Positions 1,103-30,608 are shown, counted from the stretch's first letter. The stretch is 64,000 bases of DNA from Candidatus Kapaibacterium sp. (GCA_963665665.1 OY762428.1:5152001-5216000), one strand, 5' to 3'. Notes: generated by a model from the letters alone, not told the origin. Translations and numbers: made by a program.

Positions 1103-4100
1103 TCAACTGAATTTTTTCATCTCTTTATGTAAAATTTCCAATTGTTTACCAAAGTTAATTAATTCTTTTCTGTTCCAAACATGTGAGCGTACCCATTGGC
1201 TGTCATCACAATCAGGCATGGCCATTGATGTAAAAAGCAGCCTTGCCTTATATTGCTTTTGCGAAGGGTATTGCATGGAAAGAAAATAGGCGTAAATTTT
1301 CATTTGTAGCAGATAGTGATCGGAAAGTTTATCAAGGTTCCCGGCGTTTTCCGCTTTGTTTGTTTTCCAGTCCCATATTTCCATATTTCCGGCAGGGTCT
1401 CGAATGATCATATCAATTGTTCCGTTCAAAATATCATTTCCAACGGGAATGCTCATAAATACTTCATTTTCAGCATTTTGTATCCTTTTTGCCGATTTTT
1501 TAATTAATTCTGTGGAACTAAGGGATATTATCTCTTCCAGAATTTTATCAGAATATTTATTGTAATCACCCGGTATTTCCGAAATTACGTTTTCAATAGT
1601 ATTCGATAGCTCCTTTCGGTTTGTTTTTCCGTCACTTTTCAGCCACGATGAAATATTTTCCAGAACTTTGTGTACTATGGTTCCTTTTTCCGAGCCTGCA
1701 AATTCGCTGTTTTCACCATTATCAAAATATACAGGTTCTTTATCCGGATCAAATCCAAGAATATATTTCCTGAAATACCCCGGTTCATTTTCTGTAAAGG
1801 ACATAATTTTACTCGGGGAAAATATCTCTGAGAAATCCCCGGGTTTTGTTCTCTCTAAAAGAAATTTCCCTTGTTTCACAGATTTTACAGGTGACGTTGT
1901 GTCGGTGGAGTTTTCAATATATTTCGTTATTGTAATTGGATATCTGACAGGGTGGGTTTCAATCTGATTATTAACAAGTAATTTCAGATTGTCTGTGATT
2001 TCCACTTTTGTAACATTTTCCGTTAACGTTTCAAGATTCAGATTTCTAAGGAATTTGTTTTTGAAAATTAATTCAAGGGAACCCTTTAGCTTGTTTTTGA
2101 TAGTAGCGCTGATGATCAATCTGTCTTCGGCCCTAGTCATTGCCACGTATAGCAATCTTTTTGCTTCAGCATGATTTTTTGTTTTTTCAATTTCTTTGTT
2201 CAGCAGATGAATAGCCGGATCAACGGGAAATTCAATTCTGTTGGAATTGTTATTAATTTTGAAGGATAGTCCTAATTCATCGGTCTGAATCAGAGAATCC
2301 GTGCGATTGTTTTCGGAATTGCTGTCGAAAATGGCAACAACCGGGAATTCGAGGCCTTTCGATGCATGAATTGTCATAATATTTACAATTTCGGAATTTT
2401 GGAAAGTCATGGCTTCGGATTCATCAGAGCCGATCTTTGTCAGCATATCCGTATCATACAGGAAATCATAAATTGTATTAAATCCTCTTTTCTCGAATTT
2501 ACGTGCCCAGGCAGAAAGTTTATCAATATTGGCATACATTTGCGGGCATGATTCGTAACGCACAGTGGTGGCATACCATGCCGTTTTTTCAAGAATATCG
2601 GCAATTAGTTCTGTAATAGTCATTTCGTCGGCAATGCTGATAATTTCCCTCAATATCTCTCTGGCTCTTACAATCATCTTTTTATGATTCTCATTCGGCA
2701 GAATGTTGATTTCAATATTTATCATTTTTTGATAGAGGGTTTCTCCCTTGATTCCTGATATTATCAGCATAAGCGTATCATCGAAGCTGAAGTATGGGGA
2801 TTTAAGTATTGCGGACAGAGCGAGATCGTCGTGATTGTCGGTAATGAATTTCAAAAAAGAGATAATATCCCTGATTTCCGGCGAGTCAAAAAAGCCTCTT
2901 CCTGAATGAACTGCAAAGGGTATTTTTTCTTTCCTGAAAGCATCGGTAAGTTCATCTAATTTCGTTCTGCTTCTAATTAGCACCGCAACGTCGCCAAATC
3001 TGATTTTTCGGGATACACCTTTCTCATCAATAATATCATTGTTAACCATTGCCATAATTTTTCGTGCAAGTAAAACTGCTTCCGGGTTGTATTCCGTATT
3101 TGTATCCGTATCCTCTTCGAAATTAATAAGCATATCGATACTTCCACAGAATCCATTTTTATCAATAACCCTTGCTGTATTTCTTCCACAAATAAAATCC
3201 GAATAACTAACATCGTAGGATGAGTAGTTCGATTTCATAATTTCTGAACAAACAATGTTGGTGAAAGATGCAATTACAGGTTGCAGCCTGAATGTTGATG
3301 ATAATTTAAGATTGCCTGTTGATTCCTCCTTTGATAAAGCAGGGATTAACTCATTTTTTATTTGAAAATCAGGATTGATAAACTCTGAGCCTAACATTTT
3401 ACGGTTAACTTCAGCAATATCCATGGCTGCCTGAAGGAATATTCTCACGTCAGCGTTTCTGAATCCGTATATGCTTTGCTTTTCGTCTCCCACCACAAAC
3501 AAGTTCACCCCGAGTGTGCTACCGGCGAAATTTCCGGGAGCAAGTAGTTTGATAATTTCGTATTGAATTTTATTCGTATCCTGAAACTCATCCACGAGAA
3601 GATATTTAATTCCTTTTCGAATTTCGGAAGCAACTAATTTGTCTTTCAGCAGAACATGTGCTTTTACAAGCATATCCGAGTAATCAATATAGCCATTCTC
3701 TGATTTTTTTTCCGAATAAAGATCAATGGCCTGCCTGCTAATATCAAAAAATGCATTCCTGTGTGCGATTAGTTTCTCGTCGAATTCAAAATTCTGAAAA
3801 ATTTCAAGGGCCTTTCTTGCAGCTCTTATATTATCCTGCATGGAGGAATATTCAATAAAATCTTCAATAACAATTTTCCGAAGGTAACGCCTGCTAATAC
3901 CATCATCTTTTGTAATATGATCGGAAGCTAATATGGTTTCCAATAAAATAAAAATATCGGATATTATTTTTTCATCCGGCGGGGAGGATATTTTATCAAA
4001 CATATCAATTATTTTTTTCACATTGGCCGACAGATCGGCAATTTTTTCTTTATACCCGGGATGATAGCCGCCGTTGGCAATTATACTCAGATTTTTATCA

Positions 4101-25866: not shown

Positions 25867-26946
25867 ATGGAATTAGAAAAAATAGCCGGAATGAATAAGG
25901 GGATAAAATCATACAGATGGATAATATTATCCGCACTTGTGTTTGTGGTTTTATTAAATTCCTGCACACAGTTGAGGAGCGTAAGGCATTATGCCGGCCC
26001 TTATGTTGTGAAGAAAGAGGCCGGAGGAGTGGAAATACCAACAGATGACGCGAAGGCAATTCAGGTAAACCCTGATGATCCGAAACTTAAACAGAACAGG
26101 GATATACTGGCAAAGCTTGAAGAATTTCGCGAAATGGCTGAAAAACAACAATCCGGGGAAGGCCTGAAACCCGAAGAGGGTCTGCTTGCAACAAGCGATA
26201 ACAGGCCCGTGAAATCGGTTCGCAGAAGGCTGCCGACCCTAAGGGAACAGATGAGGGAAATAGCCGACAAACAGGTTGCAATGGAATCAAGGCTGAATAA
26301 TATCGAAGGAGATATCAGCGATATAAGGGGAGATATTGCGTCAATTAACAGGAAACTTGACAATATTACAACCCGGGACGCAGGAGCTATTGCAGGCGTG
26401 CAGCAAAAAAGGGCAGAGAATCCGAATTATGCTTCCCAGACATTTTTCGATGACGAAGACATTATTCTTCCTGAAGAAATGGAAGAACCAAAAGCAAAAG
26501 CCAAACCGAAGAAAACTGTTAAAACTGATCAGGCTAAAATCCATGATGATCCGAAACCTGCTGCTAACACAAACCAGGAGCAACAAAAGGAAAAACTCGC
26601 GGCTATTGCTAAAAATGTAGAAAGTAAAGATTACAGCAATGCGCTGAATTCATTGAATAAACTTCTGAAAGAATCTGAAAACCCGACAATAATCGTTAAT
26701 TGTCATTACTGGATTGGCGAATCGTACTTCGGACTGGAACAATTCGAAGATGCAATTGAGCATTTCAAGATGGTTGTTGATTCAAAAATACCTGATAATA
26801 AACCGAAAGCCAGGATAATGATAGCGGAGTCTTTGATACGTACCGGAAAAGTTAAGGAAGCAAAGAAGGAATATTCCACGCTTATTGCAAATCATCCGTC
26901 AAGCGAATATGTTCCCGATGCAAGGAAAATGCTTCAGAAACTGTAA
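25867..26946 (+). CDS. CpoB/YbgF-like coiled-coil + TPR lipoprotein
   Basis: LLNSC lipobox, coiled coil, C-terminal TPR HYWIGESYF..AIEHF..HPSSEY. Confidence 0.75.
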   Translation: MELEKIAGMNKGIKSYRWIILSALVFVVLLNSCTQLRSVRHYAGPYVVKKEAGGVEIPTDDAKAIQVNPDDPKLKQNRDILAKLEEFREMAEKQQSGEGLKPEEGLLATSDNRPVKSVRRRLPTLREQMREIADKQVAMESRLNNIEGDISDIRGDIASINRKLDNITTRDAGAIAGVQQKRAENPNYASQTFFDDEDIILPEEMEEPKAKAKPKKTVKTDQAKIHDDPKPAANTNQEQQKEKLAAIAKNVESKDYSNALNSLNKLLKESENPTIIVNCHYWIGESYFGLEQFEDAIEHFKMVVDSKIPDNKPKARIMIAESLIRTGKVKEAKKEYSTLIANHPSSEYVPDARKMLQKL

Positions 26947-26967
26947 TATATATCATTCAAAAATCAA

Positions 26968-27005
26968 AAGCCGATTCGGAGATATAAATTCGTATCGGTT
27001 TTTTT
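26968..27005 (+). terminator. Probable intrinsic terminator
   Basis: AAGCCGATTCG...CGTATCGGTT followed by a T run after the CpoB-like gene. Confidence 0.55.
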
Positions 27006-27050
27006 ATTTCCACTGTAATACCACCTTGTTCTAAAGCAAAGAAAGAAAAC

Positions 27051-27495
27051 CACCCCCTTCCTTCGGACTCATCGGGGCCGGCGGAGGACAGCTAACGTTG
27101 TCATTCTGACCAAGCTTGCGACTGAAGAATCCATCTTTGTTTGCAGATAGTGTATGAAGAATCCACCCCGTCTCGCTGCGCTCGCCACCCCTCAACGAGG
27201 GGAATTTTTCCGGAAATCCACCCCGCCCTTATACTCGCATCTAAGCCCCTGCTTAGATGTGATGTTTTCTTTTTTTCCCAGTGGTATTTGCCTTCCCAAG
27301 CGGGGCTTGGGAAGGAGTATAAAATCAGCCATCCCGAAAGCGGCGTAGCCGCGACATTTTTGTAGAAAGGCGAATCCGGAAAGGACAACACCCCCGTCGG
27401 GGCGGCATTGGCAAAAGATTGTGTCGCTCCTACGGAGCTTTTTGAAATAATGACTGACAAAATATCTACAAAAATTCCGCTCCTACGGAGCTTTT
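27051..27495. repeat. REP-like mosaic, left flank of fold-back copy 2
   Basis: GTCATTCTGA half (27099), 49-mer (27157-27205), CATCTAAGC..GCTTAGATG and CCTTCCCAAG..CTTGGGAAGG hairpins, two CGCTCCTACGGAGCT, and TTTTTGTAGA/TCTACAAAAA inverted ends. Confidence 0.8.
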
Positions 27496-27497
27496 TC

Positions 27498-28157
27498 CCT
27501 TCTTCCGAAGGATCTGGCCGGGGGTAGGTAGGAAGGGTCGGAAGCAAAGCACCAAAGTTTTAACTTATTGCTGCCCTATTCTTCTTCAAAGCCCTTCCCT
27601 TCGGGGAGGGTTTGGGAGGGGTCAGAAGCATTGCACCGATGGTTGAAGATAATGGCGCACTGACCAGAAGCAAAGAAAGAAAACCACCCCTGTATTCCCC
27701 TCCTACATTAGGAGGGGATAAGAAATTAAATATCATAGAATTAACTCCCCCTTCTTCCGAAGGATCTGGCCGGGGGTAGGTAGGAAGGGTCGGAAGCAAA
27801 GCACCAAAGTTTTAACTTATTGCTGCCCTATTCTTCTTCAAAGCCCTCCCCTTCGGGGAGGGTTTGGGAGGGGTCAGAAGCATTGCACCGATGGTTGAAG
27901 ATAATGGCGCACTGACCAGAAGCAAAGCAAGAAAACCACCCCTGTATTCCCCTCCTACTTTAGGAGGGGATAAGAAGTTAAATATCATAGAATTAACTCC
28001 CCCTCCTTCCGAAGGAGGGGGCCGGGGGGAGGTAGGAAGGGTCGAAAGCAAAGCACCGATTGTTTGGGATATTGGCGCACTATTCTTCTTCAAAGCCCTC
28101 CCCTTCGGGGAGGGTTTGGGAGGGGTCAGAAGCAATGCAACGATGTTTGATGATAAT
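27498..28157. repeat. 252-bp tandem repeat (about 2.6 copies) containing three GC-rich hairpins per unit
   Basis: T(T/C)CTTCCGAAGGA recurs at 27500, 27752 and 28004 (period 252 = 12 x 21). Confidence 0.9.
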
Positions 28158-28205
28158 GAACTCTTGGTTGAAGTTATTGCAGCATTGTTTTGCTTTATTG
28201 ATGCC

Positions 28206-28351
28206 TTGGTCGGAGTTATTGATGCCTTGGTCGGAGTTATTGATGCCTTGGTCGAAGTCATTGATGCCTTGGTCGGAGTTATTGATGCCTTGGTCGGAGT
28301 TATTGACGCCTTGGTTGAAGTCATTGACGCCTTGGTTGAAGTCATTGATTA
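28206..28351 (+). repeat. 21-bp tandem array A, copy 2 (7 units)
   Basis: TTGGT units at 28206 to 28332 every 21 nt; degenerate units at 28143, 28164, 28185. Confidence 0.95.
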
Positions 28352-28356
28352 TAATC

Positions 28357-28776
28357 AGTAAGGTCAACCAAGCTGTCAGTAAGGTCAACCAAGCTGTCAG
28401 TAAGGTCAACCAAGCTGTCAGTAAGGTCAACCAGGCTGTCAGTAAGGTCAACCAGGCTGTCAGTAAGGTCAACCAAGCTGTCAGTAAGGTCAACCAGGCT
28501 GTCAGTAAGGTCAACCAAGTGTTCAGTAAGATCAACCAAGTGTTCAGTAAGATCAACCAAGTGTTCAGTAAAGCCAACCAAGTGTTCAATAAGGTCAACC
28601 AAGTGTTCAGTAAAGCCAACCAAGTGTTCAATAAGGTCAACCAAGTGTTCAGTAAGATCAACCAAGTGTTCAGTAAAGCCAACCAAGTGTTCAATAAGGT
28701 CAACCAAGTGTTCAGTAAAGCCAACCAAGTGTTCAATAAGGTCAACCAAGTGTTCAGTAAGATCAACCAAGTGTTC
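28357..28776 (+). repeat. 21-bp tandem array B, copy 2 (20 units)
   Basis: 7 x AGTAAGGTCAACCA(A/G)GCTGTC then 13 x ..AACCAAGTGTTC variants; tail 28777-28984 matches 455-662. Confidence 0.95.
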
Positions 28777-29003
28777 AATGAGGCCAAATTTCACTACATT
28801 AAGGCCAAACAGTAGTTCAATACCACCGGCAAAGGCAGTTTAAAGCCCTGCCAACAAAGCGTTTAGCCCAAACATCAGGATTCTGGTTCAAAACAGCGTT
28901 GAATTAAGGAAATTATCCGGTTCATTGAAACCACAGGATAGGGAATTAAGTCCGGCGGCCTGTTCATTGGGGTGGAAGAACGGGGAGTAAGGGACAGTTG
29001 ACG

Positions 29004-29432
29004 TTGTCATTCCCCGACCAGTCACCGAAAAATCGGGAATTTGCCCACCGCCAGCGAGGAACATTCCCATCCGTCATTCTGACGGAGCGAAGCGACCGAA
29101 GAATCCATGCAAAATAGCAGATAATTTATGAAGAATGGATTCTTCGCTGGCGCTCAGAATGACATCCCAGCCTTATAATCGTCAAATTCAATTGCCACGT
29201 GCTTTAGCTCGTGGATAAAGTAGGCTAAGAAAAAGAATCCACCCCTGCCTGTCCCGACGTGTCGGGAACTCGCTGCGCTCGCCACCCCTCAACGAGGGGA
29301 ATTTTTCCGGAAATCCACCCCCGCCCTTCGGGCACCCCCGCCAGCGGGGGACAGGTGGCTTCTTCCAATTTTTAATTCTTAATTGTCAATTATCAATTAG
29401 GAACGAATTCTTCGCTGGCGTACAGGATGACA
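29004..29432. repeat. REP-like mosaic, right flank of fold-back copy 2
   Basis: Inverted pair 29073-29164, GCCACGTGCTTTAGCTCGTGG 29187-29218, 49-mer variant 29233-29302, CCCCCGCCAGCGGGGG hairpin, final half-site TTCTTCGCTGGCG..GATGACA. Confidence 0.85.
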
Positions 29433-29459
29433 GCACTTCCGCCAGTGGGGAAGAGGGAA

Positions 29460-30608
29460 TTATACTTCTTCAATACTAACGTATTTGCCTTTTTCGCGCA
29501 GGCGACATGCTATCAGGCGGACTACGCGGTCGCGCTTTATAAGGCCCATCTGGCGAAATCGTATATTTGAATCGGCGGGATTAATGCCGCGTCCGAGTAT
29601 AAAATTAATCCGGTCGGAAGAATGAATGATATCGTAGAGCTTGGTAACGGGGTTGTCCTCGTCGAAAACTTCCCGGTCTTCGTCCAGCAGGTTGAAAAGC
29701 TGGTTCAGGGTCATAACTCCCTCGCACACAAGGTCTATACCATTAATTCGGCTTTCCGGCGGCGTCAGGTCGTCTGTGGCAATGCCCGTGTTTTGAATTT
29801 CGTTTCCTGTATACTCTGAAACGATCCGTGCGGTAGTGGCTCCGCAGATCACTTTCCTGCCGGGGCCGGCAAGGAATTTCTGAACGGTGAATTTGTCGTT
29901 GGACTGCCTTGCGGGCGGGCCCGTGAAGATATTTGTAATGTTTGCTTCCGTGGTTCTGACGGCAAGGATAGTATAGTCGTCCTGGTTTGTGCCCCCGCAT
30001 ATTTCCAGGGATTTTTTCCTGATCATTTTTACTAAGGACCTTTTGCTTGAACTTCCAAGCAGAGAAGTAAAAATGAAATCGTTAAGGCCTTCTTCGCCCC
30101 ATCCCAGAGGGTATCCCATTCCGAGGCCTGCCTGTGTTATGCCATCGCTCACACATAGCAGCCCCATACCGGAATCAAGCCATCCGTTAAATTCGGATGT
30201 TACTTTTTCTCCTATCGTTCTTGTTCTGCCTTTCAGAATTTTCGACTGATTAGAGTATAACAATATTGGCGAGGGCATATCATAGTTGAAGATGGAAAAA
30301 GATCCGTCGTTGAGTATCCGCATTATCATGAACACAGCGTAAGGCAGATTGTTTTCAACAGCGCTATTCATTGTTTCTGCTACTTTCCTGAAAGCTTTTC
30401 GCAGGTGGGTTCCGCCGCGGACAAGTTCTTTGAGCCTTGAAATGCAGAGCAGTGCCGCAATATTTGCTTTCACCCCCGAACCCAGCCCGTCAGCAATAAT
30501 TACCAATGTACCCTTGTCATCCCTGAGATAATCCCAGGCATCGCCGCAGGGCTGCCCCGGATACTTAGAGTCCTGCAGGCAGTCTATTTTGCAGTGAAGA
30601 TATCCCAT
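29460..30608 (-). CDS. SpoIIE/PP2C-family Ser/Thr phosphatase (hydrogenase-associated)
   Basis: PCGDA, IADGLGSGVKAN, VSDGITQAG, DDYT, VICGATTA, EGVMTL. Confidence 0.9.
   Translation of the reverse strand: MGYLHCKIDCLQDSKYPGQPCGDAWDYLRDDKGTLVIIADGLGSGVKANIAALLCISRLKELVRGGTHLRKAFRKVAETMNSAVENNLPYAVFMIMRILNDGSFSIFNYDMPSPILLYSNQSKILKGRTRTIGEKVTSEFNGWLDSGMGLLCVSDGITQAGLGMGYPLGWGEEGLNDFIFTSLLGSSSKRSLVKMIRKKSLEICGGTNQDDYTILAVRTTEANITNIFTGPPARQSNDKFTVQKFLAGPGRKVICGATTARIVSEYTGNEIQNTGIATDDLTPPESRINGIDLVCEGVMTLNQLFNLLDEDREVFDEDNPVTKLYDIIHSSDRINFILGRGINPADSNIRFRQMGLIKRDRVVRLIACRLREKGKYVSIEEV

Follow-up and report, generated by a model that had tools for sequence, protein, structure and literature searches.

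Opposed 21-bp tandem arrays in a Candidatus Kapaibacterium genome belong to a dispersed, probably non-coding fold-back repeat family

We analysed a 64,000-nucleotide stretch of Candidatus Kapaibacterium sp. (GCA_963665665.1, OY762428.1:5152001-5216000; hereafter the window), given as one strand from 5' to 3' and belonging to a closed genome of 5.46 Mb. The subject is an intergenic element in which a 21-bp tandem array (arm A) runs up to a short axis and is faced there by an inverted and diverged 21-bp array (arm B), which is followed by a conserved tail. The window holds two copies of this element. Copy 1 lies at the left end of the window, and copy 2 lies in a 2.5-kb gap whose flanks are the convergent open reading frames (ORFs) 25867-26946 on the + strand and 29460-30608 on the - strand. 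On balance, we consider the element to be probably a lineage-specific, non-coding, composite fold-back minisatellite with 53 copies in the genome. The parts of the two copies, with tandem arrays as reported by Tandem Repeats Finder (TRF) where indicated, are as follows.

1-63, + strand: final part of a hairpin module, lying upstream of copy 1; the element's start precedes the window.
64-323, + strand: arm A of copy 1, with a regular array at 148-313 (TRF).
319-328, no strand: axis of copy 1, the palindrome GAACATGTTC, with its centre between 323 and 324.
324-455, + strand: arm B of copy 1, 6 units (TRF).
456-662, + strand: tail of copy 1, matching that of copy 2 at 93% identity; an A-type unit lies inverted in it at 492-514.
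27320-27496, no strand: leader-like segment with small GC hairpins, common to copy 1 (locus L004, ~820-950); ~35 BLAST matches, and terminator-like hairpins were found.
27497-28158, + strand: 252-bp tandem repeat in 2.6 copies, with GC-rich hairpin modules alternating with degenerate A-like 21-bp units (TRF, 93% matches).
28144-28351, + strand: arm A of copy 2, with degenerate units from 28144 and a regular 21-bp array of TTGGTCGGAGTYATTGAYGCC at 28195-28349 (TRF).
28346-28357, no strand: axis of copy 2, TGATTATAATCA, which is a perfect palindrome with its centre between 28351 and 28352.
28352-28777, + strand: arm B of copy 2, in which TCAGTAAGGTCAACCAAGYKK is repeated over 20 units; an inverted diverged relative of arm A.
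28778-28985, + strand: tail of copy 2, with degenerate inverted A-like units up to a conserved CAT at 28874-28876 and then unique flank.

TRF finds the 21-bp arrays at 148-313 (7.9 copies), 324-455 (6.3), 28195-28349 (7.4) and 28355-28777 (20.1), all of them indel-free and at the coordinates where an initial annotation, made from the sequence of the window, had described opposed arrays. That annotation had also placed the innermost TTG and CAA 40 nt apart in both copies, which holds at 304-343 and 28332-28371. The perfect but differing axis palindromes that it reported are present at the positions listed above, as is the near-intact A-type unit that lies inverted in the tail of copy 1. One boundary changes: position 27498, from which it had copy 2 begin, is the start of the separate 252-bp hairpin-module repeat and not of array A. 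This repeat has ~85-110 matches genome-wide, as judged by BLAST depth. It contains three kinds of GC-rich hairpin (for example, CCCTCCCCTTCGGGGAGGG); its modules are present ~90-110 times in the genome, and the called ORF P0001 reads through them.

The element had been described as present in two copies, but at the scale of the genome it is a larger family. With the tail (28800-28985) as probe, 53 genomic copies were found at 84-100% identity. Each element has a single one, which follows the element's orientation, and two of the 53 are those in the window. Across the whole genome there are 420 A-type units (at most four mismatches) in 68 clusters and 321 B-type units in 44 clusters, and A is followed by B in constant order at 31 loci. 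Sorted by what precedes the tail, 31 of the 53 elements have arm B, 8 have arm B', a variant with the unit AAACAAGCGTGGGATGAAGTC, and 14 have an AT-rich core with an arm C; the 39 elements with B or B' are fold-backs. The order of parts from left to right is a leader with GC-hairpin modules, arm A, the axis, an inverted diverged arm (B, B', or core plus C) and a 185-bp tail. On the left side, the leader and the GC-rich hairpin modules are interspersed with degenerate A-like units. Arm length is free to vary, from 1 to 24 units. At genome positions 1775223-1777282, two near-identical fold-back elements lie 1.4 kb apart, and the pair looks like a recent local duplication that took the element along.

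Arm C is a more diverged inverted arm, and a conserved core of ~520 bp and ~88% A+T parts it from arm A. The core exists in 16 full-length copies with 82-93% identity, whereas the 14 C-type elements are counted by their tails. No gene is carried by the 16 core copies, and promoter-like sites are not enriched in the core (7 seen vs 8.1 expected). One core is seemingly split by a gene and was considered as an autonomous parent element. This candidate was rejected, as the gene belongs to an IS3-type insertion sequence (IS; orfA and orfB, with the family judged by eye from the ORFs) that splits the AT-rich core of a degenerate C-type element at genome 2032788-2033913. The insertion in this degenerate copy is the sole transposase seen.

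The junctions between arms A and B are in 21-nt register in all 31 cases, with gaps of 2, 23, 44, 149 or 170 nt, all of which equal 2 modulo 21. A best-axis scan places the axis at the identical position in 30 of 31, where 66-87 of 126 opposed bases pair. Over all aligned arms, Watson-Crick pairs are formed at 3800 of 6174 opposed positions (61.5%). Among the 39 fold-backs the commonest axis is the GAACATGTTC type of copy 1, GAACA/TGTTC, in 26 (18 B and 8 B'), followed by GAGTA/ACCTC in 7, the TGATTATAATCA type of copy 2, TGATTA/TAATCA, in 4, and GAGCA/ACCTC in 2 (the slash marks the centre). The GAGTA/ACCTC and GAGCA/ACCTC axes form a 3-bp stem with a 4-nt loop.

Comparison of the unit sequences supports the arms being diverged inverted relatives. 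The A consensus agrees with the reverse complement of B at 12 of 21 positions, a value that is reached by 1196 of 20000 shuffles and is not significant alone, whereas the innermost unit pairs are complementary at 15-17 of 21 positions, which only 0-19 of 20000 shuffles reach. The 12-15 of 21 matches first reported hold at 12 for the consensus, and the proposed comparison with shuffled 21-mers gives a clear result for the innermost pairs and not for the consensus. The similarity between the arms drops outward from the axis to ~12 of 21, and inverted A-like units recur at the end of the B arm that is farthest from the axis, both in agreement with the earlier view of diverged relatives facing each other.

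Between axis types, a change on one side is matched by a complementary change on the other. At the second and third pairs, one type has C-G and A-T where another has T-A at both; the third pair from the axis is G-C in the remaining types. Further out, 17 nt from the axis, the base that follows CTTG in the innermost units is equal across the arms in 37 of the 39 fold-backs (G/G in 24, T/T in 13 and G/T in 2). This covarying base differs among sub-lineages, and in the outer units it has a between-arm Spearman correlation of 0.57. Near-axis complementarity and covariation together point to arm-to-arm exchange (fold-back templating) or to selection that favours a small central hairpin. Selection is not required for the constant register, given that a single founder and arrays changing by whole 21-bp units only are enough to maintain it. 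The kept symmetry had been taken as a sign of selection or of a fold-back mechanism; the constant spacing amounts to inherited register and does not carry that argument, whereas the complementary axis changes and the cross-arm covariation restore it in part.

All 53 elements are intergenic. Convergent genes flank 25 of them, compared with 422 of 2206 background gaps (19%), which is 2.5-fold over expectation; of the other elements, 8 have divergent and 20 have tandem neighbours, the tandem group without orientation preference (11 vs 9). The convergent-gap excess is the pattern of repeats that persist where no promoter is broken. Taking ~1.8 Mb as the origin and ~5.0 Mb as the terminus, 33 of the 53 elements point the same way as the leading strand, and a replication-strand bias was rejected as this is indistinguishable from the general gene bias.

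The element is peculiar to this genome or lineage. No match to it was found in 40 relatives of the same family and order (0 of 40). Pattern searches gave zero matches in 185,579 species genomes and in Joint Genome Institute (JGI) metagenomes. The repeats do occur, at high depth, in public DNA runs from this organism and from a strain that differs slightly; among the listed runs that contain the stretch, none is recorded as RNA. In contigs of four DNA runs over 26400-30000 we found no empty site; these short-read contigs break at the repeats and none spans the element. Two relatives have an orthologue of the right-hand gene (44-45% identity) and, behind it, a convergent gene; the spacing there is a 4-nt overlap and a 143-bp gap, compared with a gap of 2.5 kb here. 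The partner gene differs, and therefore no insertion boundary can be read from synteny.

The 21-bp period is strictly kept. Rows for which TRF reports 0% indels number 34 of 35 for B, 37 of 48 for A and 11 of 16 for C, and the six C arms measured are all exact multiples of 21 at only ~73% unit identity. The A, B, B' and C units coexist with an unrelated GC-rich 21-bp family (GCTCGGGGGAACGCTCGGAAA and CACGAACCAACGCTAAGACGG), for which 35 of 38 rows have 0% indels. Genome-wide, 288 of 777 TRF rows have period 21, and among tandem arrays of at least 100 bp the period is 21, 42, 63 or 84 in 163 of 195. Arrays with a period of 21 or a multiple of it total 46 kb (0.84% of the genome) at 95 loci. A second composite 21-bp family, unrelated to the fold-back element, was also observed, in which CACGAACCAACGCTAAGACGG-type and CACGGGGGAACGCTCGGAAAG-type arrays stand in this order and in direct orientation behind a conserved AT-rich leader; it is located at genome 235702-236291 and at ~30 other loci (for example, 1574018-1574525).

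Beyond this genome, a search of 400 phylum genomes gave weak matches only, in 7 genomes. The five foreign loci examined (L014-L018, in five phylum genomes) each have their own unrelated 21-bp (or 42-bp) array, such as GTTTTCTCCGAACTTTCTGCG in 19.6 copies, which indicates that the fixed 21-bp length recurs across the phylum. The rigid period fits a helical-phase or ruler constraint and is the strongest unexplained fact in our data. Abundant species-specific bacterial tandem repeats of constant 20-21 nt, with variable sequence, a short conserved core, an intergenic location and unexplained function have been described (Subirana and Messeguer 2021, PMC8161180). As far as that account is drawn on here, the likeness is close: this genome is dominated by 21-bp arrays with several unrelated unit sequences, which are species-specific and intergenic and have a core in each unit. 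In contrast to the single arrays described there, the element has opposed arms at an axis, a conserved leader and tail, and a variant with an AT-rich core. Judged by sequence, this genome is a strong example of the constant-length 20-21-nt repeat class.

A unit of 21 bp spans seven codons, and two frames per strand are open in each array. The following open frames cover copy 2.

27864-28361, + strand: open frame f1, with heptads LVGVIDA, running through the hairpin modules; the P0001 of the gene caller, unsupported as a gene.
28342-28794, - strand: open frame r-b, with heptads EHLVDLT, unsupported as a gene.
28060-28815, + strand: open frame f2 over both arms, with PWSELLM and then SKVNQVF, unsupported as a gene.

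The frames can be read symmetrically, inward as f1 (+) and r-b (-) or outward as f2 (+) and its - strand mirror. The arrays might be genes for small heptad-repeat (coiled-coil) proteins, either as convergent f1 and r-b ending at the axis or as tandem f1 and then f2, for which the commonest axis would supply an ATG preceded by GGAGG as the start. We regard such genes as distinctly unlikely. The seven-codon unit itself is compatible with them, and arm A varies mostly on f1 third positions. The GAACATGTTC axis gives f2 a GGAGG, 8 nt and an ATG, in an organism that does use Shine-Dalgarno sites, but both the TGATTATAATCA axis type and the C-type elements lack an ATG for f2. In 29 of 31 copies f2 keeps its stop (CAGTAG in 25 and CAATGA in 4, by eye), and f2 matches coiled-coil families, with 41.8 bits for Pfam Alanine_zipper against a cut-off of 23.1. 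Gene callers do call f1, not only in this genome but on three further contigs; the frame is, however, forced through hairpin modules that resemble repetitive extragenic palindromic (REP) sequences. For r-b, a conserved ATG lies upstream in the same frame, but in 21 of 31 copies the twelfth codon from there is TAA. In the C arms some third codon positions are invariant and second positions vary freely, and the tail has no 3-base periodicity. Hexamer scores are +0.40 for f1 and +0.72 to +0.94 for r-b, with the B' and C arms low in both frames, and they carry no weight because an open frame with a score of at least 0.72 occurs in 54% of tandemised random 21-mers. Stop-codon counts were dropped as a coding test as they have no power, every frame lacking a built-in stop staying open, and so was the column-shuffle stop expectation for the C arms (~0 expected, 0 seen). 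No match to r-b was obtained in a word-indexed protein database; an exhaustive search gave 374 hits at E<=0.001, and the top seven examined among the 150 listed were all unrelated low-complexity heptad runs (such as EEQVDVT and SAEHLVD) within proteins that have nothing else in common with it. Atlas recognition was 850 for f2 and 1006 for r-b, and 2300 is reached by 91 of 100 known-family proteins. A coding gene would be expected to have a consistent start, a frame intact in all copies and homologues; here the starts are inconsistent, r-b is interrupted by the TAA in most copies and true homologues were not found. The elements are most likely non-coding, and gene callers are misled by them, as seen from the heptad 'proteins' predicted from the elements. 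Separately, a called ORF (P0006) on a foreign 1.05-Mb contig in ENA has SKANQVF/SKANHVF heptads with 81% identity to f2 over 28% of the query. These heptads may reflect a B-like array in another assembly; a metagenome search for relatives of P0006 found none.

The elements could also act at the level of RNA or DNA. A read-through transcript would be predicted to fold arm A onto arm B as a long hairpin RNA, which might serve as an RNase III substrate, a small-RNA precursor or a two-way read-through barrier; this seems to us very doubtful. In the predicted fold, copy 2 is one continuous in-register hairpin (-179.8 kcal/mol, z = -11.2; copy 1, z = -3.9), and both the element excess between convergent genes and the compensatory changes in the central stem would suit such an RNA. 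However, Watson-Crick pairing is limited to the 61.5% of opposed positions given above, the C-type arms are kept apart by the 520-bp core, and no Rfam family matched, with the element giving chance-level matches only. Over the window, Rfam reported one tRNA only, and an alignment fold of 43 tails found no compensatory pairs and no conserved structure. The hairpin RNA that was first suggested is therefore possible, but with no consistent strand signal, given that G-U-compatible mismatches have no strand preference (392 on the + strand vs 457 on the - strand). At the level of DNA, 21 bp is two helical turns, and the arrays might be phased loading tracks for a DNA-binding or nucleoid protein that recognises a short core of each unit (CTTG with ATTG/ACTG) and polymerises on one helix face, with the arms opposite in polarity. 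We consider this unlikely, even though the period is kept with no indels in diverged arms as well, some unit positions are invariant and others freely variable, and the invariant third-codon positions suit DNA recognition better than coding. A binding role is also the idea favoured in the account of constant-length repeats, as far as it is drawn on here (PMC8161180). Against it, the other 21-bp families in this genome and in the phylum have a common length and no common motif, and one sequence-specific protein cannot explain them all because their sequences are unrelated. We did not find a linked gene for such a protein. The free variation of arm length and the preference for convergent gene ends, as in selfish repeats, also argue against loading tracks. 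Of the functions proposed in the initial annotation, an iteron or centromere role does not fit, as judged from the number and positions of the loci: there are 53 dispersed loci, preferentially in convergent gaps, whereas partition systems have one or a few arrays per replicon by rep or par genes. The hairpin RNA stands only as far as stated above, and the non-autonomous dispersed element fits best.

We thus return to the non-coding, lineage-specific composite fold-back minisatellite as the probable explanation. The founder may have arisen from an inverted (fold-back) duplication of a 21-bp array, after which each arm would have been homogenised separately by slippage and unequal exchange, a process that would keep the register automatically. 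Units adjacent to the axis might stay complementary through hairpin-templated repair or through selection for a small central hairpin. The element would then have spread as one unit and been tolerated where no promoter is broken. Any cellular effect would probably be a by-product, such as read-through RNA forming a long imperfect hairpin.

A number of points weigh against this explanation. Terminal inverted repeats were not found when leader start and tail end were compared by eye, which is not exhaustive. Target-site duplications and empty sites were not found either, the ends adjoining other repeats and the contigs breaking there, and no element-encoded or matching transposase was found. Hence, mobility is inferred solely from copy number and similarity. 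The covariation counts do not represent independent events, as the copies have common descent. A coding role keeps a small probability, given that two frames are open in every array and f2 looks coiled-coil-like to Pfam. In addition, indels are scarce even in diverged arrays (the C arms being ~73% matched), a sign that the 21-bp period is under active constraint; a purely selfish element does not explain this, and the strict period in unrelated families of this genome and the phylum hints at a function or a ruler mechanism. A more novel reading would be a prokaryotic counterpart of eukaryotic foldback elements, a self-propagating satellite whose arms exchange via the central hairpin and whose two-turn period is enforced by a protein or by ruler-like copying. 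This is speculative and we judge it improbable. If true, it could also explain the constant-length 21-nt repeats of many bacteria.

The initial annotation knew of no named feature with this architecture, which is too strong, as both the constant-length repeats discussed above and one MITE (miniature inverted-repeat transposable element) come close. The MITE, BrickBuilt of Porphyromonas gingivalis, consists of a leader, a (23 nt)n array, a tail and IS5-like terminal inverted repeats (Klein et al. 2015, PMC4596501). In the features given there, BrickBuilt has the same modular leader, array and tail, a variable unit number, a unit of about two turns, tens of intergenic copies in one lineage and spurious ORF calls. 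It differs in that it has one array in a single orientation, whereas two inverted arms are present here, and in that we found no terminal inverted repeats or matching IS in the same non-exhaustive comparison by eye; the tail occurs once per element, with no inverted counterpart. In Drosophila, foldback (FB) transposons have near-identical inverted arms of short tandem subrepeats, and some copies carry a transposase. The element resembles them in its inverted arms of tandem subrepeats, unequal arm lengths and forms with and without a central domain. Unlike in FB transposons, only ~61% of opposed bases pair and the outer ends are asymmetric, the tail being unmatched on the other side; copies with a transposase were not found, and the host is bacterial. 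BOX elements of Streptococcus pneumoniae and the bacterial interspersed mosaic elements (BIME/REP) of enterobacteria are dispersed modular intergenic repeats with variable unit number that can form hairpins and are common at gene 3' ends. Such repeats share with our element the dispersed, modular, intergenic and hairpin-capable character and the variable internal unit number, but have other unit sizes and sequences and are not known to have long opposed 21-bp arrays. A limited literature search found no description of opposed in-register 21-bp arrays with an AT-rich-core variant. Fixed-length 20-21-nt bacterial repeats are abundant and described, and the reason for their existence is unexplained. 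This genome is a well-suited study case. Its 53 anatomically clear composite elements, three architectural variants and cross-arm covariation provide handles for distinguishing between selfish DNA, a protein-loading track and RNA.

The DNA around copy 2 is itself repetitive. By its BLAST depth profile, 27025-29350, nearly the entire gap between the convergent ORFs, is repeated DNA. It includes a palindromic MITE/REP-like repeat (GTCATTCTGA..GAAGAATCCAT / ATGGATTCTTC..TCAGAATGAC) with copies at 27098-27225 and 29062-29350. This repeat has ~65-140 BLAST matches in the genome and mostly adjoins the tail of the fold-back element.

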